From assembly GCA_035310145.1 (NCBI GenBank), contig DATGEL010000030.1:3419-67418 (forward strand): a stretch of DNA of 64,000 nucleotides, given 5' to 3'. Shown here one piece after another: positions 3,545 through 62,284 of the stretch. Position numbers and translations under genes: made by a program. How positions within the stretch are numbered: the stretch's first letter is position 1; every line of letters starts with the position of its first letter. Under the pieces are notes generated by a model. That model saw nothing but the letters and a program-made list of their open reading frames with translations, did not search any database and was not told the DNA's origin. This DNA is from Dehalococcoidia bacterium (GTDB lineage Bacteria; Chloroflexota; Dehalococcoidia; CAUJGQ01).

Positions 3545-3646
3545 ACAACGCTCCTCGAACAGCCGGCGCCGGCCGCGGTTCTGCATGGTCAGCGTACGCC
3601 AGCGGCAGCGCCTCGCGCTCGCGCGGCCATCCATCGGTGCGCGGCG

Positions 3647-3696
3647 CGCGTATCATCACGCGTATCATCACGCGTATCATCACACGCGTATCATCA
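3647..3696. repeat. tandem repeat CGCGTATCATCA x4 (12-mer; 2-nt insertion before last copy) in divergent intergenic region
   Basis: Direct reading shows copies at 3647-3658, 3659-3670, 3671-3682 and 3685-3696. The repeat lies 26 nt upstream of the ATG at 3723. Confidence 0.9.
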
Positions 3697-3722
3697 AATG
3701 AACGCGGCGGCAGGAGCGGGCG

Positions 3723-4286
3723 ATGGCAGCACAGGCACTGCGGCCCGGCGATGCGGCGCCGGATCTGGAGGTCGATCGCGCGGACGGCACGCCGCTTGCG
3801 CTCTCCGCGCTGTGGCGCGAGCGGCCGGCGCTGCTGGTCTTCCTGCGCCACTACGGCTGACCGTTCTGCCGCGAGCTGGCCGCGCAGGTGCGTGGCGAGA
3901 TCGGCGAGCGCGACGATGTCGGCGTCGCGCTGATCACGATGGGCAAGCCGGCGCAGGCCGCGGAGTTCTGCCGCGAGCAGCGGCTCTCCTACACCTGTCT
4001 CTCGGACCCGGCGCGGAACAGCTACCGCGCCTTCGGTCTGCGCCGCGGCTCGACGGCCGATGTCATGGGGCCGGGGCCGATGCTGGCCGGGCTGCGCGCG
4101 GCGAGCAAGGGGCACTTCGTCGGCCGGCCCGTGGACGACGTCTACCAGCTCGGCGGCAGCTTCCTGGTCGATACCGCGGGCCGCATCGCCTACGCGCACT
4201 ACCCGCGCCACGCGGGCGACCAACCGGCGGCGGGCGACCTGAAGCGGGCGGTCAGCCGGCTGCTCGACCGCGGCGGAGCGTCCTAA
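3723..4286 (+). CDS. peroxiredoxin-like (AhpC/TSA/redoxin, PRX_like2-type) thiol:disulfide oxidoreductase with in-frame TGA at 3858-3860 (candidate selenocysteine, U-P-F-C motif)
   Basis: ATG 3723 has AGGAG 6 nt upstream. The translation is MAAQALRPGDAAPDLEVDRADGTPLALSALWRERPALLVFLRHYG-[TGA]-PFCRELAAQVRGEIGERDDVGVALITMGKPAQAAEFCREQRLSYTCLSDP...GSFLVDTAGRIAYAHY. The TGA sits exactly where this family has the first Cys of CPxC. GC3 is high on both sides of the TGA. A stem-loop (CUGC-C-GCG [AGCUGGC] CGC-GCAG) lies 6 nt downstream of the TGA. Confidence 0.6.
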
Positions 4287-4290
4287 CCGC

Positions 4291-4887
4291 TCAGCCGCCG
4301 AAGCCCTCTTCGCTGTCGGTCAGGCCGGTGATGTCGTAGGCCATCACCAGCATGTCGCGCGTGCGGCCGCCGCGGTCCATCACGAAGTCCTGCAGCAGCG
4401 CCTCCATCTGGAAGCCGAGCTTCTCGAAAGTGGCGCGGGCGCCCTGCTGGTCCGGCGTCATGCGCGCGGTGATCTTCTGCAGGCCCAGGGCGCGGGCGAT
4501 GTCGAACACGGCCGCGGCCAGCGCCCGGCCCAGCCCCTTGCCGCGCATCGTGGCTGCGGCCTGGATGCGGATCTCGCCCAGGTGGCGCGTCCAGTTCGCC
4601 TCGTTGTAGTGCAGGCTGCCGTAACCGAGGATGCCATCGCCCTTCTGCCCCTCGGCCAGCACGGTGACCGTGTGCTTGCCGAGGTTGCTCACCCACTCGT
4701 CCACCACCGCCGGGTCGGTGATGTCGGTGCGCAAAAAGAGCAGGTCGTCGGCCGGCAGCGAACGAGCGAAGCGCAGCACCGCGTCGCGGTCGGCCTTCGT
4801 CATCAGCCGCAGCGTGATCTCGGCGCCGTCGTTGAGGCGGACGCTGCGGGGATAGGCGGCGGTGTAGGCGGGCTTCTCGGCGGTTTT
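4291..4887 (-). CDS. GNAT family N-acetyltransferase
   Basis: GTG at 4887 is preceded by AGGAGG. The GNAT acetyl-CoA binding region is RGKGLGRALAAAVFDIARALGLQKITARM. The 786-aa ORF 4291..6651 containing it is antisense to fhs and is rejected. Confidence 0.8.
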   Translation of the reverse strand, partial: KTAEKPAYTAAYPRSVRLNDGAEITLRLMTKADRDAVLRFARSLPADDLLFLRTDITDPAVVDEWVSNLGKHTVTVLAEGQKGDGILGYGSLHYNEANWTRHLGEIRIQAAATMRGKGLGRALAAAVFDIARALGLQKITARMTPDQQGARATFEKLGFQMEALLQDFVMDRGGRTRDMLVMAYDITGLTDSEEGFGG

Positions 4888-5094
4888 TTCTGCCACGGCT
4901 GAACCTCCTGCGAACGGGGCGCACCCGAGCAAGCCGCACCGTGTCGCGCGCAACGATGAAGCATCCGGCCAGACGCGCCGGCCGCTGTGCGCGCCAGTGT
5001 AGCGAGCGCATGGCGTGGGCGCCAGCCGATCGCGCATACTGCAAGCGCGCGGGCGGCTGCATGCGCGGGCCGCACCGCTGCTGGAGGTGCTGCC

Positions 5095-6837
5095 GTGCCC
5101 CCGGAGCCGGCGCAGAATGCTGCAGGCGCAACCACCACTCGCTTCCCTTCCGACCTCGAAATCGCCCAGGCCGCAAGCCTCCGACCGATCGCCGACGTGG
5201 CCGCCGATCTTGGCCTGCTGCCCGATGAGGTCGAGCTGTACGGCAAATACAAGGCCAAGATCGACCTCAGCGCCCTCGGCCGGCTGGCGAGCAAGCCGCC
5301 CGGCAAATACGTCGTAATCACCGCGATCACGCCGACGCCGCTGGGCGAGGGCAAATCCACCACCACCGTGGGGCTGGCGCAGGGGCTGGCGAAGATCGGC
5401 AAGCGCGCGATCGCCGCCATCCGCCAGCCCTCGCTGGGGCCGGTGTTCGGCATCAAGGGCGGCGCGGCCGGCGGCGGCTATGCGCAGATCGTGCCGATGG
5501 AGGACTTCAACCTGCACCTCACCGGCGACAACCACGCCGTCGGCGCGGCGCACAACCTGCTCGCCGCCTTTCTCGACAACCATCTCTACCACGGCAACGC
5601 GCTGGGCATCGACCTGAACCGCATCGAGCTGCGCCGTGTGGTGGACATCTCCGACCGCGCCCTGCGCGAGATCGTGATCGGCCTCGGCGGGCGCGAAAAC
5701 GGCGTGCCGCGCGAGGGCGGCTTCGATATCACCGTCGCCTCCGAGTGCATGGCGATCCTGGCGCTCGCCACGAGCCTGCCCGATCTGCGGGCGCGGCTCG
5801 GCCGCATGGTCGCGGCCTACACGAAGGACAATCAGCCCGTCACCGCCGAAGACCTCAAGTGCGCCGGCGCGATGACGGTGCTGATGAAGGACGCGATCAA
5901 GCCGAACCTGCTGCAAACACTCGAGGGCACGCCGGCGATGGTGCATGCCGGTCCCTTCGGCAACATCGCCCACGGCAACAGCAGCATCGTCGCCGACCAG
6001 ATCGGCCTGCGGCTCGCCGACTTCGTCGTCACCGAGGCGGGCTTCGGCGCTGACCTGGGCTTCGAAAAGTTCTGCGACATCAAGTGCCGCCAGAGCGGCC
6101 TGCGCCCGGACGCCGCCGTGCTGGTGGCGACGGTGCGGGCGCTGAAGGCGCACTCGGGCCGCTTCCGCGTGGTTGCCGGCCGGCCGCTGCCGGAGGGGCT
6201 GGTCAAAGAGGACCTGGACGCGCTGGCCGCGGGCATGGGCAACCTGGAGAAGCAGATCGAGAACGTGCGCGCCTTCGGTGTGCCGGTGGTGGTGGCGATC
6301 AACCGCTTCCCCAGCGACAGCGCGGCGGAGATGGCGGCGATCCACGACGCCGCGCTGGCCGCCGGGGCGCGCGACGCCGTGATCGCCGAGCACTTCGTGC
6401 ATGGCGGCGAAGGCGCGCGGGCGCTGGCCGAGGCGGTGGTGCAGGCCGCCGACGAGCCGTCGGAGTTCCGTTTCATCTACGACGCCGCGGCGCCGGCCGA
6501 CGAGAAGATCCGGGCGATCGCCACCGTGATCTACGGCGCCGGGGGCATTTCGCTGGCGGCCGAAGCGCGGCGCAAGCTGCGCCAGTTCGAGCGGCTTGGC
6601 TACGGGAATCTGCCGGTCTGCATGGCGAAGACACACCTCTCGCTCTCGCACGACGCGGCGCTGCTGGGCCGGCCCTCCGGCTTCACCATCCCCGTGCAGG
6701 ATGTGCGCCTCTCCGCCGGCGCCGGTTTTCTCTACGCGCTCTGCGGCGACATCCGCACGATGCCGGGTCTGCCCTCGAAACCCGGCGGCGAGGCCGTGGA
6801 CATCGACGAGCAGGGCCGGATCGTGGGGCTGTTCTGA
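5095..6837 (+). CDS. fhs: formate--tetrahydrofolate ligase
   Basis: Near full-length match: SDLEIAQ, PTPLGEGKSTTTVGLAQ, FDITVASE, MAKTHLSLS. GTG at 5095 is preceded by GGAGG with a 7-nt spacer. The protein is 580 aa. Confidence 0.9.
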   Translation: MPPEPAQNAAGATTTRFPSDLEIAQAASLRPIADVAADLGLLPDEVELYGKYKAKIDLSALGRLASKPPGKYVVITAITPTPLGEGKSTTTVGLAQGLAKIGKRAIAAIRQPSLGPVFGIKGGAAGGGYAQIVPMEDFNLHLTGDNHAVGAAHNLLAAFLDNHLYHGNALGIDLNRIELRRVVDISDRALREIVIGLGGRENGVPREGGFDITVASECMAILALATSLPDLRARLGRMVAAYTKDNQPVTAEDLKCAGAMTVLMKDAIKPNLLQTLEGTPAMVHAGPFGNIAHGNSSIVADQIGLRLADFVVTEAGFGADLGFEKFCDIKCRQSGLRPDAAVLVATVRALKAHSGRFRVVAGRPLPEGLVKEDLDALAAGMGNLEKQIENVRAFGVPVVVAINRFPSDSAAEMAAIHDAALAAGARDAVIAEHFVHGGEGARALAEAVVQAADEPSEFRFIYDAAAPADEKIRAIATVIYGAGGISLAAEARRKLRQFERLGYGNLPVCMAKTHLSLSHDAALLGRPSGFTIPVQDVRLSAGAGFLYALCGDIRTMPGLPSKPGGEAVDIDEQGRIVGLF

Positions 6838-12972: not shown

Positions 12973-14148
12973 ATGGACTTCCGCTTCTCCGCGGCCGAAG
13001 AGGCGTTTCGCGCCGAGCTGCTCGGCTTTCTGCGCGAGGTCGCGCCGCCCGGCTGGGAGCGGCGCTTCGCCGGCGATGCGGCCGCGCTCTGGGGCTTCGA
13101 GCGCGAGTTTCAGCGCAAGCTGGCCGAGCGGCGCTGGCTGGCGCTGCCCTGGCCGCACGAGCTGGGCGGTTTCGGCGCCAGCTATATGCAGCAACTGATC
13201 TTCAACGAGACGATGGCCTACAACCGCGCGCCCTCGTTCGTGAACATGGGCGTCGCCTGGGTCGGGCCCTCGATCATGACCTACGGCACGGACGAGCAGA
13301 AGCGCCGCTACGTGCGCCGCATCGCCGAGGGCGAGGATATCTGGTGCACGCTCTACTCCGAGCCGGGCGCCGGCTCCGACCTCGCCAGCCTGCAAACCCG
13401 CGCCGAACGTGACGGCGACGAGTACGTGATCAACGGCCAGAAGATCTGGACGACCTACGCACACCTCTCCGATTACGGCTGGCTCGCCGCCCGCACCGAC
13501 CCCGCCGCGCCCAAGCATAAGGGCATCAGCACCTTCGTCGTGCCCATGAAAGCGCCGGGTGTGCAGGTGCGGCCGCTGGTGAACATGGCGGACGGGCACG
13601 AGTTCAACGAGGTCTTTTTCGAGAACGTGCGCGTGCCGAAGGAGAACCTGGTCGGCGAGGAGAACCGCGGCTGGTACCAGGTCGCCACCGGCCTCGACAT
13701 CGAGCGCACGGCGATCGGCAGCCCGGCCACGGCGCGCCGCACGCTGGAAGACCTGGTGCAGTTCTGCAAGACGGCGCGGAGAGGCGGCCGGGCGCTGATC
13801 GACGATCCGATCGCGCGGCACACGCTGGCCGACCTCGCGGTCAGCATCGACATGGCGAAGATGCTGTCGTACCGCATTGCCTCGATGCAGACGGCGGGCC
13901 GGGCGCCGGGCTATGAGGCATCGAGCGCCAAGATGTTCGGCACGGAGCTGAACCAGCGGCTGGCGAACGCGGCAGTGGGCCTCCTCGGCCTCGCCGGCCA
14001 GCTCGACGGCGTCGACGCCCGCGCCCCGCTGCACGGCCGGCTCAAGTATCTCTACCTGCGCATGGTGGCGAACACGATCGAGGGCGGCACCAGCGAGATC
14101 CAGCGCACCGTGATCGCCACCCGCGGCCTCGGTCTGCCGCGGGGCTGA
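12973..14148 (+). CDS. acyl-CoA dehydrogenase
   Basis: Full-length ACAD: YSEPGAGSDLASLQTRAERDGDEYVINGQKIWTT, and the C-terminus EGGTSEIQRTVIATRGLGLPRG. SD GAAGGTGG is upstream of the ATG. Confidence 0.9.
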   Translation: MDFRFSAAEEAFRAELLGFLREVAPPGWERRFAGDAAALWGFEREFQRKLAERRWLALPWPHELGGFGASYMQQLIFNETMAYNRAPSFVNMGVAWVGPSIMTYGTDEQKRRYVRRIAEGEDIWCTLYSEPGAGSDLASLQTRAERDGDEYVINGQKIWTTYAHLSDYGWLAARTDPAAPKHKGISTFVVPMKAPGVQVRPLVNMADGHEFNEVFFENVRVPKENLVGEENRGWYQVATGLDIERTAIGSPATARRTLEDLVQFCKTARRGGRALIDDPIARHTLADLAVSIDMAKMLSYRIASMQTAGRAPGYEASSAKMFGTELNQRLANAAVGLLGLAGQLDGVDARAPLHGRLKYLYLRMVANTIEGGTSEIQRTVIATRGLGLPRG

Positions 14149-19615: not shown

Positions 19616-19642
19616 CCCCTCTCCATGAAATGGAGAGGGGGC
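19616..19642. repeat. palindromic element A: CCCCCTCTCCAT-GAA-ATGGAGAGGGGG, member of dispersed CTCTCC/GGAGAG repeat family
   Basis: 12-bp perfect stem between two CoA-transferase genes. Followed by GGCCGGGGGGTGAGGCCACG-ATG (start of the next gene), nearly identical to the sequence before the ATG at 56255. Confidence 0.7.
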
Positions 19643-19659
19643 CGGGGGGTGAGGCCACG

Positions 19660-20919
19660 ATGACCGCTGATCTGCCCTTGCCGCTCGCCGGCATTCGCGT
19701 GGCGGACTTCTCCTGGTTCGCCGCTGGCCCCGTGGCCGGCGCGGTGCTGGCGCAGTTCGGCGCCGAAGTTATTCGCGTCGAGTCCGAGTCGCACCTCGAC
19801 GGCCTGCGCACCACCATGCCCGTGCCGCCGGGCAGCGAAGGCAGCGTCAACGTCTCCGGCTACTACAACAACTTTAACGCGAACAAGCGCTGCTTCACGC
19901 TCAACATGAGCCGGCCCGAGGCCCGCGCCGTCGCGCTGGAGCTGCTTGCAACCTGCGACGTGATGCTGGAGAACTACACGCCGCGCATCGTGGAGAAGTG
20001 GGGGCTGACCTACGCCGACGTCGCCGCGGTGCGGCCGGACATCATCTACGTCAACATCCCCATGCAGGGCAATTGGGGGCCGCACCGCGACTTTTTGGGC
20101 TTCGGCGGTGTGCTGGCCCCGGTCAGCGGCTACAGCTACCTCGCCGGCTGGCCCGACCGCGCCCCGATCGGCGTCGGCACCAACTATCCCGACTACGTGA
20201 TCAACCCCGGCCACGCCACGATCGCCATCCTCGCCGCGCTGCGCCACCGCGACCGCACGGGGGAAGGGCAGCAGATCGAGCTCTCGCAGCTCGAATCGAC
20301 GCTCAACGGCCTCGGCCCGGCGCTGATGGAGGCAGCCGCTAACGGCACCGTGCCCCAACGCCAGGGTAACCGCTGCGCCTACGCCGCGCCGCATGCCGCC
20401 TTCCGCTGCCAGGACCGGCCGGCCACGGGCACGGGCGCGCCCGAAGACCGCTGGTGCGTGATCTCGGTCTACACCGACGCCCAGTGGCAGGCGCTGAAGG
20501 CGGAGATGGGCGAGCCGGACTGGGCCGCGGAGACGCGCTTCGGCACGCTGCTCGGCCGCAAGCAGCACGAGGACGAGCTGGAGCGCTGCACCGAGGCGTG
20601 GACGCGCACGCTCAGCGCCGAGGCGGTGGCGGAGCGGCTGCAGGACCGCGGTGTGCCGGCCGGCATCGTGCAAAGCGCCGAGGACGTGCTCGACCACGAC
20701 CCGCAGCTGCAGGCGCGCGGTCTCTACGTCTATCTCGACCACCCGGAGGCGGGCCGCACCGCCTACGACGGCCCGCACTTCGTGCTGAGCGCCACGCCGG
20801 GCGTGCTGCATACGCCGGCGCCGCTGCTGGGCGAGGCGAACGACTACATCGTGAACGAGCTGCTGGGCGTGGACGGCGAGCGCGCCGCCGACCTGCTGGT
20901 CAACCAGATCGTATATTAG
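19660..20919 (+). CDS. CoA transferase family III (CaiB/BaiF) protein
   Basis: Start at MTADLPLPLAGIRVADFS, with ATG 19660 preceded by GGTGAGG. The family is conserved throughout. Confidence 0.85.
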   Translation: MTADLPLPLAGIRVADFSWFAAGPVAGAVLAQFGAEVIRVESESHLDGLRTTMPVPPGSEGSVNVSGYYNNFNANKRCFTLNMSRPEARAVALELLATCDVMLENYTPRIVEKWGLTYADVAAVRPDIIYVNIPMQGNWGPHRDFLGFGGVLAPVSGYSYLAGWPDRAPIGVGTNYPDYVINPGHATIAILAALRHRDRTGEGQQIELSQLESTLNGLGPALMEAAANGTVPQRQGNRCAYAAPHAAFRCQDRPATGTGAPEDRWCVISVYTDAQWQALKAEMGEPDWAAETRFGTLLGRKQHEDELERCTEAWTRTLSAEAVAERLQDRGVPAGIVQSAEDVLDHDPQLQARGLYVYLDHPEAGRTAYDGPHFVLSATPGVLHTPAPLLGEANDYIVNELLGVDGERAADLLVNQIVY

Positions 20920-20987
20920 GCAGGGCGAGCGCGGACCGGCGCCGGGCCGGCCGCGACGAGCATGCGAAGCGGGAGCGAACGATTGCG

Positions 20988-22175
20988 ATGGCAGAACAGG
21001 TGAGCATGAAGGGCAGGGCCGCGATCTGCGGCCTCGGCATTACCGACATGGGCCGCATCTACGGCCACGACGCCAACTGGTTCGCCGGCGAGGCGGTACG
21101 GTTGGCGGTGGAAGACGCTGGCCTGAGTAAAGACGAGATCGACGGCCTGCTGATCAACGCGGGCATCCAGGGCATCACCGGCGGCGGCCTCGGCCTGGCG
21201 CTGCAGAACTACCTGGGCTTCAACAACCTGCGCATGCTGAACCACATGAACGCCGCCGGCTCGACCGCGGCGCAGATGGTGCAGTACGCGTCGTTTGCCG
21301 TGGCGGGCGGCCTGGCCAACTACGTCGCCTGTGTCTTCGCCGACGCGCCGCTGCAGGCGAACAAGAGCGCTGGCGCGGCCTACGGCAGCACCCGCCGCCC
21401 CGCCGGCATGATCAGCCTCGCCAGCGCCTACGGGATGTACGGCGCCAACTCCAGCTACGCGCTGGCAGCACGGCGGCACATGGCCGAGTACGGCACCACG
21501 CAGGACCAGCTCGGCCAGATCGCCGTCTCCACCCGCCTCTGGGCGACGATGAACCCGAAGGCGCAGATGCGCGAGGCGATCTCGCTCGAGGACTACCACA
21601 ACTCGCGTTGGATCATGGAGCCGCTGCACCTGCTCGATTGCTGCCTCGTCTCCAACGGCGGCGTCTGCGTGATCGTGACCACGGCCGAGCGGGCGCGCGA
21701 TCTGCGGCAGCCGCCGGCCTACGTCTGGGGCATGGGCCAGGGCCATCACGGCAACCCGATGCGCCGCGGCTTCGAGCCGGAGACGCACTCCGCCGCGACG
21801 ATCGCCAAAGCCTCGGCCTTCCGCATGGCCGGCATCACCACCGACGACGTGGACGTCTGCGAGCTGTACGACTGCTACACCTACACCACGCTGGTGACGC
21901 TGGAAGACTACGGCTTCTGCAAGAAGGGCGAGGGCGGCGCCTTCGTCGAGGACGGCAAGCTCGGCCCCGGCGGCAGCCTGCCCACCAACACCGGCGGCGG
22001 CCAGCTCTCCGGCTACTACATGTGGGGCATGACGCCCGTTTCAGAGGCGGTCATTCAAACGCGCGGCCAGGGCGGCGAGCGGCAGGCGCCGAAGCACGAT
22101 GTGGTGCTCGTCTCCGGCAACGGCGGCGTGCTCAACTACCATGGCTGCCTCGTGCTCAGCCCCAATCCGGCATAG
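20988..22175 (+). CDS. thiolase-like protein (SCP2/lipid-transfer-protein type, nonspecific thiolase)
   Basis: MAEQVSMKGRAAICGLGIT is the N-terminus. The C-terminal motifs are NTGGGQLS and GNGG. Confidence 0.85.
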   Translation: MAEQVSMKGRAAICGLGITDMGRIYGHDANWFAGEAVRLAVEDAGLSKDEIDGLLINAGIQGITGGGLGLALQNYLGFNNLRMLNHMNAAGSTAAQMVQYASFAVAGGLANYVACVFADAPLQANKSAGAAYGSTRRPAGMISLASAYGMYGANSSYALAARRHMAEYGTTQDQLGQIAVSTRLWATMNPKAQMREAISLEDYHNSRWIMEPLHLLDCCLVSNGGVCVIVTTAERARDLRQPPAYVWGMGQGHHGNPMRRGFEPETHSAATIAKASAFRMAGITTDDVDVCELYDCYTYTTLVTLEDYGFCKKGEGGAFVEDGKLGPGGSLPTNTGGGQLSGYYMWGMTPVSEAVIQTRGQGGERQAPKHDVVLVSGNGGVLNYHGCLVLSPNPA

Positions 22176-22194
22176 CGAGAAGACGATGACGAGT

Positions 22195-22599
22195 GACTAC
22201 GCCAAGCCCATGCCCGCCGCCGACGAGGACTCCGCGCCGTTCTTTGCGGGCGCCCGCGAGGGCAGGCTGATGCTGATGCGCTGCAACAACTGCGGCGCCT
22301 ACCGCTACCCCTCGCGCGACCGCTGCGACGTCTGCTGGAGCACGGACACCGCGTGGGTGCAGGCGAGCGGCAAGGGCGCCGTCTACACCTTCGGCATCAT
22401 GCACCAGCTCTACCATCCGGGCTTCAAGGACGAGATCCCCTACAACGTGGCCGTGATCGAGCTTGCGGAAGGGCCGCGTATGTACTCCAACCTCGTCGGC
22501 GTGGCGAACGACCAGATCCGCGTGGGTATGCCGGTCGAAGTCACCTTCGAGCGCATCAGCGATGAGATCAGCCTGCCGAAGTTCCGGCCGGCGGCGTAG
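22195..22599 (+). CDS. DUF35 OB-fold/Zn-ribbon protein (thiolase-associated)
   Basis: FFAGAREGRLMLMRCNNCGAYRYPSRDRCDVCWS is the Zn-ribbon, followed by an OB fold. Start at MTSDY. Confidence 0.85.
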   Translation, partial: DYAKPMPAADEDSAPFFAGAREGRLMLMRCNNCGAYRYPSRDRCDVCWSTDTAWVQASGKGAVYTFGIMHQLYHPGFKDEIPYNVAVIELAEGPRMYSNLVGVANDQIRVGMPVEVTFERISDEISLPKFRPAA

Positions 22600-24519: not shown

Positions 24520-24739
24520 CGGGGGCGGCAGCACCCCCAGCCGCCGCCGGCATCCTGCTCGCCAGCCAGTTCGACCGGCTGCGCCTGGGTACAGGTTGGG
24601 AGCGCTGTGACGACGAAGGGCGCTGGCGGCCCATGTCGCCACGTGTTCCCGCGTAACGCTACGCAAAACGCTCCGCCTCCAGCCTGGGATCGACGAGCGT
24701 TCGCGCCTACCCGGCCTTCTACTCCCTGTTCTCTCTCCC

Positions 24740-24826
24740 CTAACCCCTGGGCAAGCCCAGTCCCCGCGTGGCGATCACGTTGCGCTGGATCTCGCTGGTG
24801 CCCGCGGCGATCGTGGCGGCATTGTG
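24740..24826 (-). pseudogene. remnant of acyl-CoA dehydrogenase 3' end (last ~27 codons), part of a chimeric decayed ORF
   Basis: 24748-24817 is nearly identical (1 mismatch in ~70 nt) to the 3' end of the ACAD gene at 32336-32405. It encodes ...TIAAGTSEIQRNVIATRGLGLPRG*. The upstream in-frame sequence switches to an SDR-like N-terminus (RVALITGGRDIGR). Confidence 0.6.
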
Positions 24827-32323: not shown

Positions 32324-33511
32324 CTACCCCCGCGGCAAGCCCAGCCCCCGCGTGGCGATCACGTTGCGCTGGATCTCGCTGGTGCCCGCGGCGATCGTGG
32401 CGGAGACGCTGCTCAGGTACATGTGCGCGATGCGGCCGCGCAGCGGCGCCCACTTGCTGCCACGGTCCAGCCCGCCGTACATCCCCAGCATGCGCGTGCC
32501 CAGCCGCGCCACCCGCTGGCTCACCTCCGAGCGGTACATCTTGTTCACCGAGGCCTCGTGGTTCGGCACCTGGCCGCGCTTCTGGATGCTGATCACGCGG
32601 TAGGAGAACAGCCGCGCAATCTCCGCCTCCACCAGCTTCTCCGCCAGCTCCAACCGCAGCCCCGGCGTGAGATACAGCGGCTTGCCCGCGTCGCTCTTCG
32701 CCTCGCGCGCGTATTTGATCAGGTCGTTGACCGTGTGCTTGAGGCCGATGCTGGCGCCGATGTTCGAGCGCTCGAAGTCCAGCAGCGTGGCGCCGACATA
32801 CCAGCCGCGGTTCTCCTCGCCCACCCGGTTCTTCACCGGCACGCGCACGCTGTCGAAGAACTCCTGGTTGAAGACGTGGTCGTTCGCCATCGTCACCAGC
32901 GGCTGCACGGAGAGGCCCGGCGTCTTCATGTCGAGCAGCAGCATGGAGATGCCGCGATGCTTCGGCGCCTCCGGGTCGGTGCGGGCGAGCATGAACATCC
33001 AGTCGGCGCGGTGAGCGCCGCTGGTCCAGATCTTCTGGCCGTTCAGCACGTAGTCATCGCCGTCGCGCACGGCACGGGTTTGCAGACTGGCCAGGTCGGA
33101 GCCGGAGCCGGGCTCCGAGTAGCCCTGGCACCACTGGATCTCGCCGCTGGTGATGCGCGGCAAGTGCTCCTGCTTCTGCTCGTCCGTGCCGTAAAGGATC
33201 AGCGTGGGGCCGATCATCTGCACGCCCATACCGCCCACCTGCGGCGCCCGCGCCTCGGCCATCTCTTCGTTGAAGATGAACTGCTCGCTGACGCTCATGC
33301 CGGCGCCGCCGTACTCTTTGGGCCAGTGCGGCGCGATCCAGCGCTTCTGCCCCAGCGCCGTGCGCCACTGCTTGCGGAAGTCTTCTTCCTGGCGGCTGAG
33401 GTCGTAGCGCTCCATCTCCGGGTTGGCGAAGCGCGACGGCAGGTTCTCGTTGATGAACCCGCGCACCTCACTGCGGAAGGCGGCCTCTGCGGCGGTGTCC
33501 TGGAACTGCAT
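32324..33511 (-). CDS. acyl-CoA dehydrogenase
   Basis: ATG 33511 has GGAGG upstream. It is full-length and about 75% identical to the ACAD at 54924..56108, with long identical blocks. Confidence 0.9.
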   Translation of the reverse strand: MQFQDTAAEAAFRSEVRGFINENLPSRFANPEMERYDLSRQEEDFRKQWRTALGQKRWIAPHWPKEYGGAGMSVSEQFIFNEEMAEARAPQVGGMGVQMIGPTLILYGTDEQKQEHLPRITSGEIQWCQGYSEPGSGSDLASLQTRAVRDGDDYVLNGQKIWTSGAHRADWMFMLARTDPEAPKHRGISMLLLDMKTPGLSVQPLVTMANDHVFNQEFFDSVRVPVKNRVGEENRGWYVGATLLDFERSNIGASIGLKHTVNDLIKYAREAKSDAGKPLYLTPGLRLELAEKLVEAEIARLFSYRVISIQKRGQVPNHEASVNKMYRSEVSQRVARLGTRMLGMYGGLDRGSKWAPLRGRIAHMYLSSVSATIAAGTSEIQRNVIATRGLGLPRG

Positions 33512-34423: not shown

Positions 34424-35710
34424 ATGATCGAGGAGCGCCGCCGCGGCGGCGACGACGAGCGCGGGCTTGCCGCCATGCCGCTGATCCTCTCCGACGAAGA
34501 CCTGGCTGCCGCGCGCGCCGGCCGCTCCGCCACGATGCCGCTCGCGGGCCTGCGCGTGATCGACGCCGGCCAGATCATCGCCGGCCCCTTCGGCCCCTCG
34601 CTGCTGGCCGACTTCGGCGCCGACGTGATCTCGATCGAAAATCCGGAACTGGTCGGCCTGGAGCTGGCGCCCAGCGTGGCGCTGGGCCGCGCCGTGCTGG
34701 GGCGCAACAAGCGCTCGATCACGCTCGACCTGCGCACGCCGCGCGGGCAGGAGCTGCTGCGGCAGCTCGCCGCCGTCGCCGACGTGCTGGTGGAGAATTA
34801 CTCGCCCGGCACGATGGAACGCTGGGGCATCGGCCCCGACGACCTGGCGAAGGTCAACCCGCGCCTCGTCTATGTGCGCGTCTCCGGCTACGGCCAGACG
34901 GGGCCGTACCGGCAGAAGGGCGGCTACGACCGCGTGGCGATGGCCTTCGGCGGCCTGCTCGAAGTCACCGGCGCGCCCGACGGCGAGCCGGTGCACCCCG
35001 GCTACATGCTCGGCGACCACCTGGCCGGCACCTTCAACGCGCTCGGCGCCCTGATCGCCCTCTACTGGCGCGACGCGGCCGGCGGTGGCGCCGGGCAGGT
35101 GGTGGATGTCTCGCTCTACGAGCCGCTGTTCCGCGTCTCGCACAACATCGCCGGCGAGTACGCGCACGACGGCAAGGTGCGGCGCCGTGCCGGCAACACG
35201 CGCAATTGGACCGTTCCCGGTCAGCAGTTCCGCACGAAGGACGACCGCTGGGCGCTGATTATCGCGCCCTCCGATCGCCTCTTCATCCGCCTCTGCCAGG
35301 CGATGGGCCGGACGGAGCTGACGGTCGATCCGCGCTTCATGCCCGCGCACGTGCGCCAGCAGCACGCCGACGAGATCCACGCCGAGATCCGCCCCTGGGT
35401 GGCGCGGCACACGCTGGCCGAGGTGATCGCGATCCTGGACGCCGAGCGCGTGCCCGTGGGGCCGATCTACGCGATCGACGAGATCTTCGACGACCCGCAG
35501 TTCGAGGCGCGGGAGGACATTGTCGAGATTCCCGACGCGCATGTGGGCCGCGCGGCGATGCCGAACGTGGTGCCGAAGCTCTCGCGCACGCCCGGCGGCG
35601 TGCACAGCCCCGCGCCGCGCACCGGCGAGCACAACGAGGACGTTTATGGCGGCCTGCTCTCGCTCTCGCCGGCGGCGATCGCGGCCCTGCGCGAGGCGAA
35701 GGTGATCTGA
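34424..35710 (+). CDS. CoA transferase family III (CaiB/BaiF) protein
   Basis: MPLAGLRVIDAGQIIAGPFG is in the family N-terminal region. The start is uncertain, with ATG 34424, 34472 or 34535 in frame. Confidence 0.85.
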   Translation: MIEERRRGGDDERGLAAMPLILSDEDLAAARAGRSATMPLAGLRVIDAGQIIAGPFGPSLLADFGADVISIENPELVGLELAPSVALGRAVLGRNKRSITLDLRTPRGQELLRQLAAVADVLVENYSPGTMERWGIGPDDLAKVNPRLVYVRVSGYGQTGPYRQKGGYDRVAMAFGGLLEVTGAPDGEPVHPGYMLGDHLAGTFNALGALIALYWRDAAGGGAGQVVDVSLYEPLFRVSHNIAGEYAHDGKVRRRAGNTRNWTVPGQQFRTKDDRWALIIAPSDRLFIRLCQAMGRTELTVDPRFMPAHVRQQHADEIHAEIRPWVARHTLAEVIAILDAERVPVGPIYAIDEIFDDPQFEAREDIVEIPDAHVGRAAMPNVVPKLSRTPGGVHSPAPRTGEHNEDVYGGLLSLSPAAIAALREAKVI

Positions 35711-36847: not shown

Positions 36848-39800
36848 TTAGCGGCCGGTGCTGAAGCCGCCGTTGGTGCCGCCGGTTGTGCCGCCGCCGG
36901 TGCTGAAGCCGCCGTTGGTGCCGCCGGTTGTGCTGCCGCCGGTGCTGAAGCCGCCTGTGCTGCCACCCGTGGTGCCGCCGGTGCCCGAGGTTGACGGCAC
37001 GCCGGTCGAGCCGCTGGTCCCCGTGGCGCCCGAAGTCGAGGGCACGCCGGTCGTACCGGTCGTTGCCGGCCGGCCGGTGGTGCCGCTGGTGCCGGAGGAT
37101 GAGGGCACTCCGGTCGTGCCGGTCGTCGCCGGGCGGCCCGTGGTGCTCGGCGGCGGCGCCTTGCGCGCCTTGGCGGCGGCGTCGCTCAGCGATGCGGCCG
37201 TGGGCAGCGCGTTCAGCGGATCCGCGGGGGCCAGCGTGGCTTCGTCCACGGCAAAGGTCACGTCGTCGCCCGCCTTCAGGTCGGCGAAGGCGACGTTGGC
37301 GTCGTATTTGGTGCTGCCGCCGACGGCCACGGCCGTGTAGCTGCCGTCCGCGCACTGCGCCTGCAGGGCCGAGCCGCCCAGCGCCGTGATCTTGCCGCTC
37401 GTGCAGTTGAGCGCGAGGCTGTGATGTCCTTGCTTGAAAGTCCTGGCGCCGGCGTCCCAGGTCAGGATCTCGTCGAACTTGCCGATCGGCTGGTCGTAGC
37501 CGCCGTTCACGCCGCTGTCGCCGGAGGCATAGGCATTCTCGATGATGTGCACGCCCTGCGGCTTGCCGTCGGTCAGCTCGACCGTCGCGCCCGGCGTCGT
37601 CTGCAGGTCGAAGTCGAGCGCCACCGGTTTGGCCGCGTCGTCGAAGCTGAAGGCGACCAGGCGTCGCGTGCCCTTCTCGTCGAGGATGATCGAGGCGAGG
37701 CCGTGCGGCGGGCCGTTGTCGATCAGCGGCTGCACCAGCAGCGCTTCGACGTTGGGAAAGCACTGATCGCCGCTCTTCTTCACCGCCGGCAGCAGCGCCT
37801 TCTCCGCCGAGGGTTGCTGGGTCGCGTCCCAGACCGACGCCCACTTGCCGCTCTTGTCGGGGCGGTAGACGTCGATATACGGCCGCTGGCAGCCGCTGCT
37901 GTCCGGCGCCTGGCTTTGCAGCACGAGCTGGCCGGGATCGCCGGCATTCTTGCCGGCAACGACGAAGCTCTGCAGCCTGGTTGCGTTCGGCCGCAGCAGC
38001 GTGGCGACGTCAAGCTTGTCGGCGGGCGTCACGGTGGGCGCCGGCGTCGGGCTTGCCGTGGGGCTTGGCGACGGTGAGGCGGTCGGGTTCGGCGTGCTCG
38101 ACACGGCCGCGGTTGCAGACGCGGTCACGTTCGCCGCCGTGGTCGTGGGCGTCGGCCTGGGGCTCGACTTGCCGCCGGCCACGGCGAAGCGGATGCCCAC
38201 CCCGGCCGCCACGAGCAGCACGGCGGCCAGCGCCAGCGGCCAGAGTCGCTTGATGCCGCCGCCGGTCGCGGGCTCGGGCGCCGTACGTCCGCCCACGGCG
38301 CCGCCGCGGCCGGCGGCGCCGCCCGCTCCGGCCAGTGCCGCACCGCCGCCTGCGCCGGCCGCGGCGGCGCCGTCCGCGGACCGGCGCGGCTCGTCACGCC
38401 TGGGCAGCGGCACGTACACCGTCTGCTGCTCGTGATCGTCCACCGCCGGAGGCGACACCGGCGGGCGCACGTAGCGGGCCTCTTCACTTTCGGCGATCCC
38501 TTCGATGACGCCGGCGTCGCGCGCGGCGGGCCGAATGCCCGGCGTGGCGTCCGCGGGCGCGGGCAGATCGACCACCGTGGTGTCGGCCGCGGGCGCGAAT
38601 GGACGTGATGGTGTCAGCGGCTCGGCCAGCGTCGGCTCGGGCGGAGCTGGCGTGCGCACCTCCGGCAGCGTCGGCTCGGGCGGAGGCGGTGTGCGCGGCT
38701 CATAAAGCGTGGGCTCGGGCGGGGCCGGCGTACGCGGCTCGTAGAGGGTTGGCTCGGGCGGCGCCGGCGGCGTCGCCGGGCCGGGCGTGCGCTCCTCGAC
38801 GATCGTCGCGTCGGCGGGCGGCGCGGGCGTGAGCGCTTCCGGCTCGGCCTGCGGGCGGCCGAGCGAGGCCGGCGTCAGCGGCTCGATGATCGTGGCGTCG
38901 AGCGGGGGATAGGCGGCGGCGCTGGCGGCGGACAACTCGCCCTGCTGCAAAACCTCGGCGAACTCGCGCCCGCTCTGGAAGCGATCGTCCGGGTTGCGCG
39001 CCAGACCGCGCAGCACCAGCTCGTCGAGCCAGGCGGGAATCGCGGGGTTGCGCGTACTGGGGCGGGGAATCTCGCCCTCGAAGGCGACTTCCGAGAAGAC
39101 CTGGAAGAAGCGCAGCTCCTCCAGCACGGGCGTGCTCTCCGCCCGCGACTGCGCCAGCTCGCGACACTTCTGGATGTTGACGTAGAACGTGCCGGTGAGC
39201 AGCTCGAAGAAGATCACCGCCAGCGAGTAGAGGTCGGAGCGGTGGTCGATGCGCCGCCCCGACGCCTGCTCGGGCGACATGTAGATCACGGTGCCCGGCT
39301 GGAAGCCGGTGCGCGTCATGCTCAGGTAGCCGCCGACGGCCTGGGGAATATGCGCCACGCCGAAGTCCGCGACCTTGGGCGTGCCGTCCTCCATCAGGAA
39401 GACGTTGCCGGGCTTGAGGTCGCGGTGCACAATGCCGCGCTCGTGTGCGGCCTGCAGGCCGCGGGCGATGCCGGTGGCGATCGTGATCGCCTGCTGCAGC
39501 GGCGGCCGGCCGCGCTGCAGAAACCCCTTGAGGTCGCCGCTTTCGGCCAGCTCCATCACGAGCAGATAGCCCTCTTCGTAGGGCTCGATCGCGTGGACTT
39601 CGAGGATATTGGGGTGGCGCACGCGCAGGCCGAGCCGGCCTTCGGTCAGGAAGCGGCGCAGCGCCTCTTCCTGCTGCGTTTCGAGATCGGCGGAGTCAAG
39701 GCCCAGCTCTTTGATGGCGACGAAGCGGTCGGCCAGCTCTTCGTGCGCCTTGTAGACGCTGCCGAAGGTGCCGCGCCCCAGCAGGCCGTCGCGGCGGCCT

Positions 39801-39853
39801 TCGCTGCGCAAAATGCGGTACTTGTTGAGCACCAGCTCGTCGAAGGGGAGCAT
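36848..39853 (-). CDS. serine/threonine protein kinase (Hanks-type) with Pro-rich repeats, TM segment, large extracellular domain and Gly/Thr/Ser-rich repetitive C-terminal tail
   Basis: Start at MLPFDELV (ATG 39853). Kinase motifs are GRGTFGSVYKA, HRDLKPGNVFL, DFGVA and SPE. The Pro-rich repeat is PAPPEPTLYEPRTP, repeated. The TM helix is LALAAVLLVAAGVGI. Confidence 0.9.
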   Translation of the reverse strand: MLPFDELVLNKYRILRSEGRRDGLLGRGTFGSVYKAHEELADRFVAIKELGLDSADLETQQEEALRRFLTEGRLGLRVRHPNILEVHAIEPYEEGYLLVMELAESGDLKGFLQRGRPPLQQAITIATGIARGLQAAHERGIVHRDLKPGNVFLMEDGTPKVADFGVAHIPQAVGGYLSMTRTGFQPGTVIYMSPEQASGRRIDHRSDLYSLAVIFFELLTGTFYVNIQKCRELAQSRAESTPVLEELRFFQVFSEVAFEGEIPRPSTRNPAIPAWLDELVLRGLARNPDDRFQSGREFAEVLQQGELSAASAAAYPPLDATIIEPLTPASLGRPQAEPEALTPAPPADATIVEERTPGPATPPAPPEPTLYEPRTPAPPEPTLYEPRTPPPPEPTLPEVRTPAPPEPTLAEPLTPSRPFAPAADTTVVDLPAPADATPGIRPAARDAGVIEGIAESEEARYVRPPVSPPAVDDHEQQTVYVPLPRRDEPRRSADGAAAAGAGGGAALAGAGGAAGRGGAVGGRTAPEPATGGGIKRLWPLALAAVLLVAAGVGIRFAVAGGKSSPRPTPTTTAANVTASATAAVSSTPNPTASPSPSPTASPTPAPTVTPADKLDVATLLRPNATRLQSFVVAGKNAGDPGQLVLQSQAPDSSGCQRPYIDVYRPDKSGKWASVWDATQQPSAEKALLPAVKKSGDQCFPNVEALLVQPLIDNGPPHGLASIILDEKGTRRLVAFSFDDAAKPVALDFDLQTTPGATVELTDGKPQGVHIIENAYASGDSGVNGGYDQPIGKFDEILTWDAGARTFKQGHHSLALNCTSGKITALGGSALQAQCADGSYTAVAVGGSTKYDANVAFADLKAGDDVTFAVDEATLAPADPLNALPTAASLSDAAAKARKAPPPSTTGRPATTGTTGVPSSSGTSGTTGRPATTGTTGVPSTSGATGTSGSTGVPSTSGTGGTTGGSTGGFSTGGSTTGGTNGGFSTGGGTTGGTNGGFSTGR
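36858..36980. repeat. in-frame 42-nt tandem repeat x3 encoding GGTTGGTNGGFSTG-like units at the kinase C-terminus
   Basis: Copies at 36858-36899, 36900-36941 and 36942-36980 are near-identical. Confidence 0.8.
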
Positions 39854-40103
39854 GACCGCCTCAACGATCGGAACGCCGCTACGCCCCCGCCTTCGCCTTC
39901 GCTGGGGAACACGGTTAGCGTATCGATCGTGCCAATTCCGTGTCAACGCCGTTGCCGGCGCGCACAACGGTTCCTGCCGTGCCGGCAAAGCGCGGGCGGG
40001 CGCGCCCAACGCCGCGGCGCAACCGCTCTTATAAGTATGAACGCGACCGGACCGGCGATTGTGCGCGCGGACACGGCAGCGGGTGGCAGGGGCCGAGCGC
40101 CCG

Positions 40104-51811: not shown

Positions 51812-52570
51812 TTACACGGCGTCAGCGTGCACGGAACGGTCGGGCACGCCAAGCAGGATCCACGTGCGCCGCTGCAGTATCTCCGCGGTGTGTGCTCGAT
51901 CGTGCGAGATGATCCGCCGCACCATCTTACGGACGGTCCAACTTCCCGGCGTGACCAGTCCGGGACGGACGGGGCGATAGACTCGCTCCCGCTGCGCATC
52001 GTTGAGCGAGCGCAGGAGCGCGAGCGTTGTGACCCGCTCTCCGCTCACATCGGCCACGGTCTCGAAGATGCCCCTGGCCGGGCCATCCTTCAGCCCATCG
52101 CGATAGAACACCTCAAAGCTGAGCACGTGTGCAAGGATGTCGCGGACGGTCCGCGCTCCTGGTGCCCAGACATCGAACGCCTCAACCGATGATCTGGGTG
52201 GTGCCCAGTCGAGGAGCGCATCGGGTAACGCGGAAACGAGTCCGAGCAGGTCGGCTCGGGCAAACTCTAGCCGTGCGATGCAGGTTTCGAGTTCCGCACG
52301 CGGCAGGGGCCGCCGATCGTCGGCGAAGCAGAAGTCGCCGTCGGCGTCCGACTGCGTCAGTGGGTCGATGCTCTCGACCGCCTCCCATGCAGGAGACGCG
52401 TCGACGCTTTCTCCATGCTGCTGCAGCCAGGCAACGTGCTCGGCGATCGCGAGCGGCAGCATCAGTGCGATCGCCTCGGAGTTCCGCCCGCCGGCGATAC
52501 AGCCAGGCAAGTCGAGCACCCAGGCGTGGATTCCCGTACCGTACATGACGAGTCCAACGGGATGCGTCAT
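51812..52570 (-). CDS. fusion protein: N-terminal HicB-like (type II antitoxin, RNase H-like fold) + C-terminal DinB_2-like domain
   Basis: ATG 52570. The HicB-like part is VGLVMYGTGIHAWVLDLPGCIAGGRNSEAIALMLPLAIAEHVAWLQQHGE. DinB-like His motifs are LAHVLSFEVFY and ISHDRAHTAEI. No hicA was seen nearby. Confidence 0.6.
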   Translation of the reverse strand: MTHPVGLVMYGTGIHAWVLDLPGCIAGGRNSEAIALMLPLAIAEHVAWLQQHGESVDASPAWEAVESIDPLTQSDADGDFCFADDRRPLPRAELETCIARLEFARADLLGLVSALPDALLDWAPPRSSVEAFDVWAPGARTVRDILAHVLSFEVFYRDGLKDGPARGIFETVADVSGERVTTLALLRSLNDAQRERVYRPVRPGLVTPGSWTVRKMVRRIISHDRAHTAEILQRRTWILLGVPDRSVHADAV

Positions 52571-53378: not shown

Positions 53379-54557
<1,179 letters not shown>

Positions 54558-54923: not shown

Positions 54924-56108
<1,185 letters not shown>

Positions 56109-56254: not shown

Positions 56255-57400
56255 ATGCCGCATCCGCTCTACCGCGGCGCCGCGATCGCCGGCGTCGATG
56301 AGTCCGACCAGATCGGCAACGTGCCGAACAAGACCTCGCTGCAACTGCATGCCGAGGCGGCGATCAACGCGCTCGCCGACGCCGGCATCGACAGGTCCGA
56401 GGTCGACGGCATCGCCACGGCCGGCGTCTCGCCCATGCAGACGGCCGAGTATCTCGGCATCGTGCCGCGCTATTCCGACGGCACCTCGGTCGGCGGTTCT
56501 TCGTTCGTGATCCACGTCGGCCACGCGCTGGAGGCGATCGCCGGCGGCCGCGCCTCCGTCGTGCTGATCACGCACGGCGAGGGGCACCTGGGTGGCGGCC
56601 GGCGCGGCCCCGGCGGGCCAGACCCTTCCAACCTCGCCGGGCAGTACGAGGCGCCGTTCGGCGTGCTGGGGCCGCCCTACGCCTACTCGCTCGCCTGTAT
56701 GCGGCACATGGCGCTCTACGGCACGACCAAAGAGCAGCTCGCGCAGATCGCCGTGCAGACGCGCCAGTGGGCGAGTATGAACCCCAAGGCGCTGATGCGC
56801 GATCCGATCACCGTCGAGGACGTGCTCAACTCGCGCCTGATCTCCTACCCCTTCAACCTGCTCGACTGCTGCCTGGTCACGGACGCCGGCGGCGCCTGCG
56901 TTGTCGTCAGCCCCGAGCGGGCGCGCGATCTGAAGAAGAAGCCGGTCTGGGTGCTGGGCGCCGGCGAGGCGCACGACCACAGCATGATCAGCCAGATGCC
57001 CGACCTCACGCGCACGCCGGCGCAGTACTCCGGCCCGGCGGCGATGGGCATGGCCGGCGTCTCGCACGCTGAGATCGACCTGGCGATGCTCTACGACTCC
57101 TTCACCTACACCGTGCTGGTGACGCTGGAATCGCTGGGCTTCTGCAAGCCGGGCGAGGGCGGCGCCTTCGTGAGCAACGGCCGCCTGGGACCGGGCGGCG
57201 CCCTGCCCACGAACACCAACGGCGGCGGCCTGAGCTACACGCACTCGGGCATGTACGGGATGTTCCTGCTGCTGGAGGCCACACGCCAGTTGCGCGGCGA
57301 GTGCGGCCAGCGCCAGGTGGCGAACGGCAAGATCGCCCTGGTGAACGGCACCGGCGGCTCGCTCTCCTCCACGGGCACGCTGGTGCTCGCCGCCGATTAG
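56255..57400 (+). CDS. thiolase-like protein (SCP2/lipid-transfer-protein type)
   Basis: AIAGVDESDQIGNVPNKTSLQL is the N-terminal region, and NTNGGGLS a C-terminal motif. It is paralogous to 20988..22175. Confidence 0.85.
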   Translation: MPHPLYRGAAIAGVDESDQIGNVPNKTSLQLHAEAAINALADAGIDRSEVDGIATAGVSPMQTAEYLGIVPRYSDGTSVGGSSFVIHVGHALEAIAGGRASVVLITHGEGHLGGGRRGPGGPDPSNLAGQYEAPFGVLGPPYAYSLACMRHMALYGTTKEQLAQIAVQTRQWASMNPKALMRDPITVEDVLNSRLISYPFNLLDCCLVTDAGGACVVVSPERARDLKKKPVWVLGAGEAHDHSMISQMPDLTRTPAQYSGPAAMGMAGVSHAEIDLAMLYDSFTYTVLVTLESLGFCKPGEGGAFVSNGRLGPGGALPTNTNGGGLSYTHSGMYGMFLLLEATRQLRGECGQRQVANGKIALVNGTGGSLSSTGTLVLAAD

Positions 57401-57426
57401 CGCCGCGCTGCAAAGGACGCCGAAAG

Positions 57427-57852
57427 ATGACGACGCAACCGGCCTACGCCAAGCCGCTGCCGCTGATCACGCCGGAGAACGAGCGCTTCTGGCAGGGCTG
57501 CAAGGCGCACGAGCTCTGGCTGCGCTTCTGCAACGCCTGCGCCAAGCCCTACTACTATCCGCGCGACATCTGCCCCATGTGCGGCTCGCGCGACGTGAGC
57601 TGGCAGCAGATGAGCGGCCGGGGCACGCTGCACACCTTCGCCATTGTGCACCGCGCGCCCACCCCAGCCTTCCGCGAGGACGTGCCCTTCGTCACGGCGA
57701 TGGTCGACCTGGAAGAAGGCCCGCGCCTGCTGACCAACCTCGTGGGCATCGCGCCGGACCCGGCGCAGATCAGGGTCGGCATGCCCGTCGAAGTGACCTT
57801 CGAGGACGTCACCGAGCAGATCAGCCTGCCGAAGTTCCGGCCAGTGGGGTAA
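57427..57852 (+). CDS. DUF35 OB-fold/Zn-ribbon protein (thiolase-associated)
   Basis: Start at MTTQPAYAKP (AAAGGA upstream). WLRFCNACAKPYYYPRDICPMCGS is the Zn-ribbon. It is paralogous to 22195..22599. Confidence 0.85.
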   Translation: MTTQPAYAKPLPLITPENERFWQGCKAHELWLRFCNACAKPYYYPRDICPMCGSRDVSWQQMSGRGTLHTFAIVHRAPTPAFREDVPFVTAMVDLEEGPRLLTNLVGIAPDPAQIRVGMPVEVTFEDVTEQISLPKFRPVG

Positions 57853-62218: not shown

Positions 62219-62284
62219 GCAACGCCATGCACAAGGAACCGGAGGCCGCTATGCCGGCCTCCGGTTCCTTGTGCATGGCGTTGC
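62219..62284. terminator. 30-bp perfect inverted repeat with 6-nt loop between convergent flp and menA-like genes (bidirectional terminator-like hairpin)
   Basis: The left arm 62219-62248 is GCAACGCCATGCACAAGGAACCGGAGGCCG, the loop is CTATGC, and the right arm 62255-62284 is its exact reverse complement. No U-tract follows. Confidence 0.7.

Follow-up and report, generated by a model that had tools for sequence, protein, structure and literature searches.

The question raised by this locus is whether the long stretches of identical DNA that are shared by diverged acyl-CoA dehydrogenase (ACAD) paralogs reflect an exchange of sequence between the genes or follow from conserved protein and extreme codon bias. 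The stretch of 64,000 nucleotides that was analysed, called the window in the following, has a GC content of 70% and contains four full-length three-domain ACAD genes: A (32324..33511, minus strand; 395 aa), which encodes the N, M and C domains of Acyl-CoA_dh; B (54924..56108, plus strand; 394 aa), which begins with a GTG start codon; C (53379..54557, minus strand; 392 aa), which is transcribed divergently to B; and D (12973..14148, plus strand). The domains Acyl-CoA_dh_N, Acyl-CoA_dh_M and Acyl-CoA_dh_1 were detected above the Pfam thresholds, which places these genes in the acyl-CoA dehydrogenase superfamily and agrees with an earlier sequence-only reading that had called ACADs at the coordinates of A, B and C. 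For all four genes the top NCBIfam match is TIGR03204, the PimC-type large subunit of pimeloyl-CoA dehydrogenase, with 261–294 bits, a score below the equivalog cut-off of 623.85 bits, so that they are similar to this family without being members. The ACAD genes have GC3 values of 0.92–0.95. A and B are 71% identical in protein, somewhat less than the approximately 75% estimated previously, and 78% identical in DNA. D shows about 50% identity to A, B and C, is free of conversion tracts and was used as the unconverted within-genome control.

Genes neighbouring the ACADs encode family-III CoA-transferases, SCP-x-type thiolase-like proteins and ChsH2-type OB-fold proteins, and these too are present in paralog pairs. 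The two CoA-transferase III genes (19630..20919 and 34424..35710) are 34% identical in amino acid sequence, the two thiolase-like genes (about 21012..22175 and 56255..57400) 45%, and the two genes for ChsH2-type proteins with OB-fold and zinc ribbon (22099..22599 and 57301..57852) 44%, and in no pair does the longest exact run exceed 25 nt. The paralogous catabolic modules span 19630..22599 and 34424..35710 / 56255..57852. A self-comparison of the window also revealed short tandem or overlapping direct repeats (89% over 95 nt and 81% over 108 nt, at 36851..36984 and 38623..38769) in a 1053-aa ORF (36848..40009), as well as two palindromic matches, one 95 nt long (38287..38381) and the other 66 nt long with 94% identity (62219..62284). 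The nearest public loci come from uncultured Dehalococcoidia and Tepidiformaceae-like Chloroflexota.

Exact runs shared by A and B were taken from a codon alignment of the two genes, and all those listed here fall in codons 58–246. From the 5' end of the genes onwards, there is a 44-nt tract (A 33299..33342, minus strand; B 55090..55133, plus strand), a 93-nt tract (A 33197..33289, minus; B 55143..55235, plus) with the rare codon GGT94, exclusive to A and B, and a 62-nt tract (A 33075..33136, minus; B 55296..55357, plus) that includes CTG140, AGT142 and CAA144 and whose final 29 nt are identical in C as well. These are followed by tracts of 28 nt (A 32986..33013, minus; B 55419..55446, plus) and 48 nt (A 32936..32983, minus; B 55449..55496, plus), which are split by a single paralog-specific codon, encoding A176 in A and V in B, and finally by a 102-nt tract (A 32772..32873, minus; B 55559..55660, plus) that contains the rare codon TAT238. 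In total the tracts cover about 370 nt with zero differences inside. They lie in a homogenised central segment that comprises codons 57–250 of A (32762..33343, minus strand), from the end of the N-terminal domain through the middle domain to the start of the C-terminal domain, and 55089..55670 (plus strand) of B, where the homogenisation is recorded by silent triplets and by the third-position tree. When the identity of A and B was plotted in sliding windows of 45 nt, values ranged from 49% to 100%, and 9 of the 76 windows reached 100%, forming abrupt plateaus. The identity plot that had been proposed as a check is evidently not uniform, and its blocks of complete identity go beyond what codon usage explains.

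The initial observation had been made on peptides of antisense 'shadow' ORFs. The peptide said to occur verbatim opposite A and B, with more than 100 nt of identical DNA, was recovered as 36 residues (ERSKSSSV...NSWLK) at 32766..32873 (plus strand) and 55559..55666 (minus strand). A second peptide, reported for all three genes, is shared over 25 residues (LRPGQ...PEDL) by B and C, in agreement with a run of 78 identical nt in these two genes, and its full 26-aa form lies opposite C only; opposite A just the first 9 residues match because of two silent differences in A (CGT146 and GAT152). That the tracts are overlapped by long antisense ORFs might suggest that selection at the nucleotide level, acting on these ORFs or on an embedded RNA element, keeps them identical. 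However, antisense ORFs are expected at a GC content of 70% and a GC3 above 0.9, and silent sites inside the tracts differ freely in the orthologs (4–13 differences per tract), so that the DNA itself is not conserved between lineages and the probability of this explanation is practically nil.

How the tracts are to be read depends on the age of the paralogs. Orthologs of A are 91% (P0001) or 80–86% (P0002 to P0008) identical to it in protein, those of B 80–92% (P0092, 92%; P0088, 85%; P0117, 83%), and C has an ortholog group of its own with P0142 as best match (94%); the best database matches to A, B and C are thus 91–94% identical. DNA of two A, two B and two C orthologs was available for comparison, and the divergent arrangement of C and B is kept in the related loci L081 and L084. 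For the C-terminal part, A and its ortholog have a protein identity of 0.97 and B and its orthologs one of 0.92–0.97, whereas the value for A and B is 0.55. From the separate ortholog groups, from identities of 80–92% within them as opposed to 71% between A and B, and from the C-terminal identities, it follows that the duplication of A and B long predates these speciations; it is older than the split from every related lineage found. It could be argued that A and B are recent duplicates whose termini diverged fast, the central identity being divergence yet to come, and the fraction of C-terminal silent sites at which A and B use the same codon (0.80) is indeed somewhat over the baseline. Nevertheless, precisely in the terminal parts each gene is 91–97% identical to its own ortholog group, at all 12 C-terminal diagnostic positions that are fixed per ortholog group A and B each have the residue of their own group, and C-terminal trees recover orthology with 100% bootstrap support. 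With separate A and B ortholog clades a recent duplication is refuted already, and we consider this scenario hardly credible.

In genes with a GC3 of about 0.93, amino acid constraint combined with codon bias might yield identical DNA stretches without any exchange. The central region is conserved family-wide, orthologs of the A group being 84–90% identical to B there, and independent draws from the codon usage of the window predict that the same codon is used at a fraction of 0.63–0.70 of identical residues. In between-genome pairs that were matched for protein identity and GC3, this same-codon fraction was 0.64–0.71 and exact runs reached up to 44 nt. Between A and B, the fraction is 0.87 for the whole gene and 0.92 for the central region. 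By comparison, each gene shares only 0.69–0.76 of codons with its own orthologs in the central region (0.69–0.73 for A), and cross-genome pairs of A and B genes share 0.66–0.74. Within the genome, D compared with A, B and C gave 0.70–0.78 in the central region with longest runs of at most 29 nt, and three further paralog pairs of the window gave 0.64–0.72 with runs of at most 25 nt, so that the within-genome controls top out at 0.64–0.78 while matched cross-genome pairs never exceed 44 nt. With independent draws from the codon usage of the window, each of the six A–B tracts would arise with a probability of about 10^-1.3 to 10^-6.9, and these values, taken together with the controls, reject codon usage as a sufficient cause. 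Rare codons shared in the tracts are AGT and GGT, which make up 3.6% of the Ser and 8% of the Gly codons, respectively, as well as CAA, AAA, CAT and TAT. Much of the identity between A and B is due to codon bias, but not all of it.

What separates the two sources of identity is the comparison with true orthologs at silent sites. For this comparison, only codons were considered that specify the same amino acid in a gene, in its ortholog and in its paralog. In the central region, A agrees with the codon of B in 40 such triplets and with that of its ortholog in 7 (p=5e-7), and B agrees with the codon of A in 38 and with that of its ortholog in 5 (p=1e-7), whereas controls with D as the paralog or inside related genomes gave ratios of about 1:1. 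Outside the central region, this excess is gone for B (15:15) and is weaker for A (17:9), where some of it remains. Codon preference is unable to produce shared rare codons together with a 40:7 silent excess over the true ortholog, and exact DNA matches arising from codon bias without exchange, being refuted by the ortholog controls and by paralog D, are a highly improbable explanation of the tracts. The homogenisation of silent sites is specific to this genome.

The same pattern is seen in trees and in total identity. Across the central region, total nucleotide identity is 0.909 between A and B as compared to 0.893–0.897 between orthologs. A neighbour-joining tree of central third positions pairs A with B (92% bootstrap), while at central first and second positions each gene falls with its own orthologs (bootstrap 94% for A and 100% for B), and at C-terminal third positions the tree agrees with orthology. 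First and second positions of the central region still recover orthology because the diagnostic residues sit between the tracts. The mosaic signal was significant for all three genes in a 3SEQ-style test (A, p=1.5e-4; B and C, p<5e-5 each). When all sites are used, this type of test is somewhat anti-conservative, as the informative sites of conserved regions are mostly silent, and controls with relatives gave p values of about 0.01–0.02; it was redone with silent codons only. A simple permutation of silent-identical runs (A–B, p=0.014; B–C, p=0.07) has low power with only 35 silent differences, and so the ortholog-based tests were used in its place.

Shared derived states are also present inside the exact tracts. 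S221, located in the 102-nt tract, is found in A and B, whereas all 31 orthologs examined have N at this position, and E181, located in the 48-nt tract, is found in A and B, whereas 29 of the 31 have D. Two codons of a conserved middle-domain motif, CTG140 and AGT142, are common to A, B and C only, codon 140 being CTC and codon 142 being AGC, TCC or TCG in all six orthologs and in D. Independent parallel change was considered as a source of the derived states shared by A, B and C and was rejected as not credible; the states were copied between the genes. Between the tracts, small islands hold A-type or B-type residues, and their silent differences are nearly saturated: in the island of codons 106–125, 6 of the 16 codons for identical residues differ silently, and in that of codons 146–166, 4 of the 18. 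The central diagnostic residues at positions 119, 163, 197, 207 and 211 are all kept in the right gene, between the tracts. In their distances to the ortholog groups, the tracts 58–71 and 214–246 are B-like and the tract 75–105 is A-like, a weak hint that transfer between A and B may have gone both ways. Direction, like the timing of transfer, is only weakly hinted at because the orthologs compared as DNA are distant and their silent sites are nearly saturated.

The evidence for conversion comes from one sequence of this genome, and an artefact of assembly or polishing, in which reads were corrected across paralogs or the assembler switched copies at shared k-mers, has to be weighed. The contig is probably metagenome-derived, from an uncultured Dehalococcoidia-like organism, and among database entries, the best of which match at 91–94%, there was no independent copy of it. 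On the other hand, outside the tracts the copies differ too much (49–80% identity per 45-nt window) for reads to be mis-mapped, copy switching predicts chimeras whereas the diagnostic residues alternate correctly in each gene, both reading frames are intact, and the derived states shared by A and B have no template in any database sequence. Taken together, these observations make an artefact very unlikely.

Paralog C takes part in the mosaic through a 78-nt exact tract shared with B, which covers the middle-domain motif (B 55329..55406, plus strand; C 54078..54155, minus strand). This motif is highly conserved across the paralogs and orthologs compared. The probability of the tract under the codon usage of the window is about 10^-6.7, and the corresponding B and C orthologs of two related genomes have no run of at least 8 identical codons. 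At R149, Y154 and V155, which lie in this tract, C differs from its two nearest orthologs and has the state of B each time. As amino acid evidence for a transfer from B to C, these three residues were judged suggestive only, since they are present in other members of the C group too. Outside the tract, the silent triplets of C (22:7 and 23:10) are marginally higher than in the D control (17:15 and 16:14). The evidence for a role of C in conversion is concentrated in the 78-nt tract.

A further sequence related to A was detected 7.5 kb from this gene and in the same orientation. This 81-nt relic of an ACAD 3' end (24739..24819, minus strand), which ends in …TIAAGTSEIQRNVIATRGLGLPRG (also quoted as AATIAAGTSEIQRNVIATRGLGLPRG) followed by a stop, is identical to the 3' end of A at 77 of its 81 positions. 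No difference occurs in the first approximately 57 nt, and 4 differences, all of them synonymous, follow in the final 7 codons; over its final 9 codons, A has 7 silent differences from its own ortholog. GCG375, ACG387 and CGG388, silent states that are otherwise specific for A, are present in the relic, and both also have TTG392, a codon found in C_L081 and C_L084 too. A search upstream of the relic did not reveal ACAD homology. From these shared states it is probable that the relic exchanged sequence with A and was a further exchange partner. With respect to 3' ends, the B ortholog of L084 (1069..2274, minus strand; 401 aa) ends in ...GLGLPRGQGLGIRE, apparently because 7 nt have been duplicated in tandem (CCAGGGG CCAGGGG), which moves the reading frame past the usual stop. 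Without the duplication its sequence would read CCC AGG GGT TAG GG, which is the unusual ending of the relic (window 24739..24760).

Gene conversion is marked by an old duplication, by paralogs that are more similar to each other than to their orthologs, also at synonymous sites, by a mosaic along the gene and by derived states that the paralogs share, and all five were found. We consider it very probable that short-tract ectopic gene conversion occurred repeatedly between the old paralogs A and B, with an additional tract exchanged between B and C, and that paralog-specific residues were spared. The sequence-only reading had interpreted the mosaic identity as recombination between paralogs, and the comparison with orthologs lends this interpretation its support, for the central segment of about 580 nt and as a property specific to the paralogs of this genome.

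How such exchange might have operated can be inferred from the sequences themselves, and this applies to the recombination mechanism, to its seeding by codon bias and to the selective filter. Where codon bias is extreme, the DNA that encodes conserved peptide motifs would match exactly over 30–45 nt, even across unrelated genomes. Matches of 30–45 nt would be long enough to seed RecA-type strand invasion, branch migration would then halt at diverged codons, and selection would probably purge convertants in which paralog-specific residues had been overwritten. The expected outcome of such repeated, non-reciprocal homologous recombination, limited to the central approximately 580 nt where the protein is conserved family-wide, would be a patchwork of difference-free tracts of 28–102 nt between small A-type and B-type islands. 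The 78-nt tract with the middle-domain motif would have been copied between B and C, and the N- and C-terminal parts would have stayed outside the exchange and retained their orthologous identity. As a tentative proposal, which we regard as possible though rather doubtful in its entirety, codon bias may seed conversion so that ancient paralogs as diverged as these (55% identity in the C-terminal domains) keep swapping central patches of less than 100 nt, selection may guard the residues that differ, and the relic at 24739..24819 may have been a donor.

Tandem ACAD paralogs with 65% amino acid identity were also noticed in other Dehalococcoidia MAGs, in L015 (3001..4194 / 4257..5474) and in L006 (1758..2972 / 3001..4170). 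Their longest exact runs are 54 nt (L015) and 41 nt (L006), and their same-codon fractions are 0.72–0.75, which may be a sign of conversion in other lineages.

It had also been suggested that the inverted copies could mediate an inversion. A (minus strand) and B (plus strand) are inverted relative to each other and are 21.4 kb apart, and their longest exact run, 102 nt, exceeds the minimal length for efficient RecA-dependent recombination, which is about 25–30 bp in E. coli. In orientation and length they qualify as inversion repeats, and an inversion between them would be mechanistically possible. A crossover between A and B would swap their N-terminal parts, and since neither gene was chimeric when compared with the ortholog groups, the suggestion holds for the orientation, the distance and the long exact runs but finds no support in the structure of the genes. 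Synteny with relatives is too eroded to bear on an inversion: among 21 neighbour proteins from L081 and L085, the only syntenic match was DinB_2, and a luciferase-like protein gave a weak match at a non-syntenic place. The DinB_2 gene (51812..52570), on the other side of the C–B pair, is conserved with L081, and directly downstream of B (56109 onward) synteny with L081 (11313..13392) and L084 (3..962) is lost. In both L081 and L084 a GFO_IDH_MocA oxidoreductase gene is located downstream of the B ortholog (followed by DapF in L081), and in the window the thiolase-like and ChsH2-like pair occupies this place.

If the conversion reading is correct, the ACAD genes provide a clean example of conversion between enzyme paralogs that are old and differ in function, as opposed to redundant copies, with a mosaic on a fine scale, tract ends located exactly at paralog-specific residues and a high GC3 that plausibly creates exact-match seeds. 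In the expanded ACAD-type families of Chloroflexota, conversion can distort silent-site distances, trees and duplication ages, and attributing long identical stretches of GC-rich paralogs to codon bias needs an ortholog control. If the process is also general in paralog-rich genomes of Dehalococcoidia and of the SAR202 type, micro-conversion would shape the evolution of large catabolic enzyme families, and phylogenies and dS-based dating of such expansions would be biased.

By analogy, the closest characterised counterpart of the conversion proposed for A and B is the tufA/tufB pair of Salmonella enterica, whose conversion tracts extend processively, stop at stretches of sequence difference and become shorter through mismatch repair (PMC5485169). 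Both cases concern two protein-coding paralogs of about 1.2 kb in inverse orientation on a single chromosome; transfer is non-reciprocal between the tuf genes and probably so between A and B, and the short A–B tracts bounded by diverged islands fit the behaviour of the tuf genes (PMC5485169). The tuf genes, however, have 12 differences, are redundant and are converted over most of the gene (PMC5485169), whereas A and B, with 71% protein identity and distinct ortholog groups, have a mosaic only in their centre, which is known here from sequence. Whole-gene, long-lasting concerted evolution was described for 26 prokaryotic genes by Wang & Chen 2018, the text of which makes no mention of acyl-CoA dehydrogenase (PMC6053082). 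The criterion used there is the same as the one employed here, namely that paralogs within a species are more similar than orthologs, synonymous sites included, and it is similarity at synonymous sites that separates conversion from purifying selection (PMC6053082). Unlike in those genes, conversion of A and B is partial and amino acid trees still show orthology. PE/PPE and other families of Mycobacterium tuberculosis, as far as they are outlined in the available portions of two reports (PMC13061034, PMC12046097), resemble the present case in being GC-rich, large paralog families with dispersed copies and short ectopic tracts; they differ in being antigen or virulence families followed in many isolates, in contrast to catabolic enzymes seen in a single sequence. 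Homogenisation of rRNA operons, according to the available part of another source (PMC8022953), likewise involves repeated ectopic conversion between dispersed copies, but it concerns RNA genes that are identical over their full length and not, as here, the conserved cores of diverged protein genes. Ectopic conversion between bacterial paralogs is well established, and the ACAD genes represent a known process in a new place.
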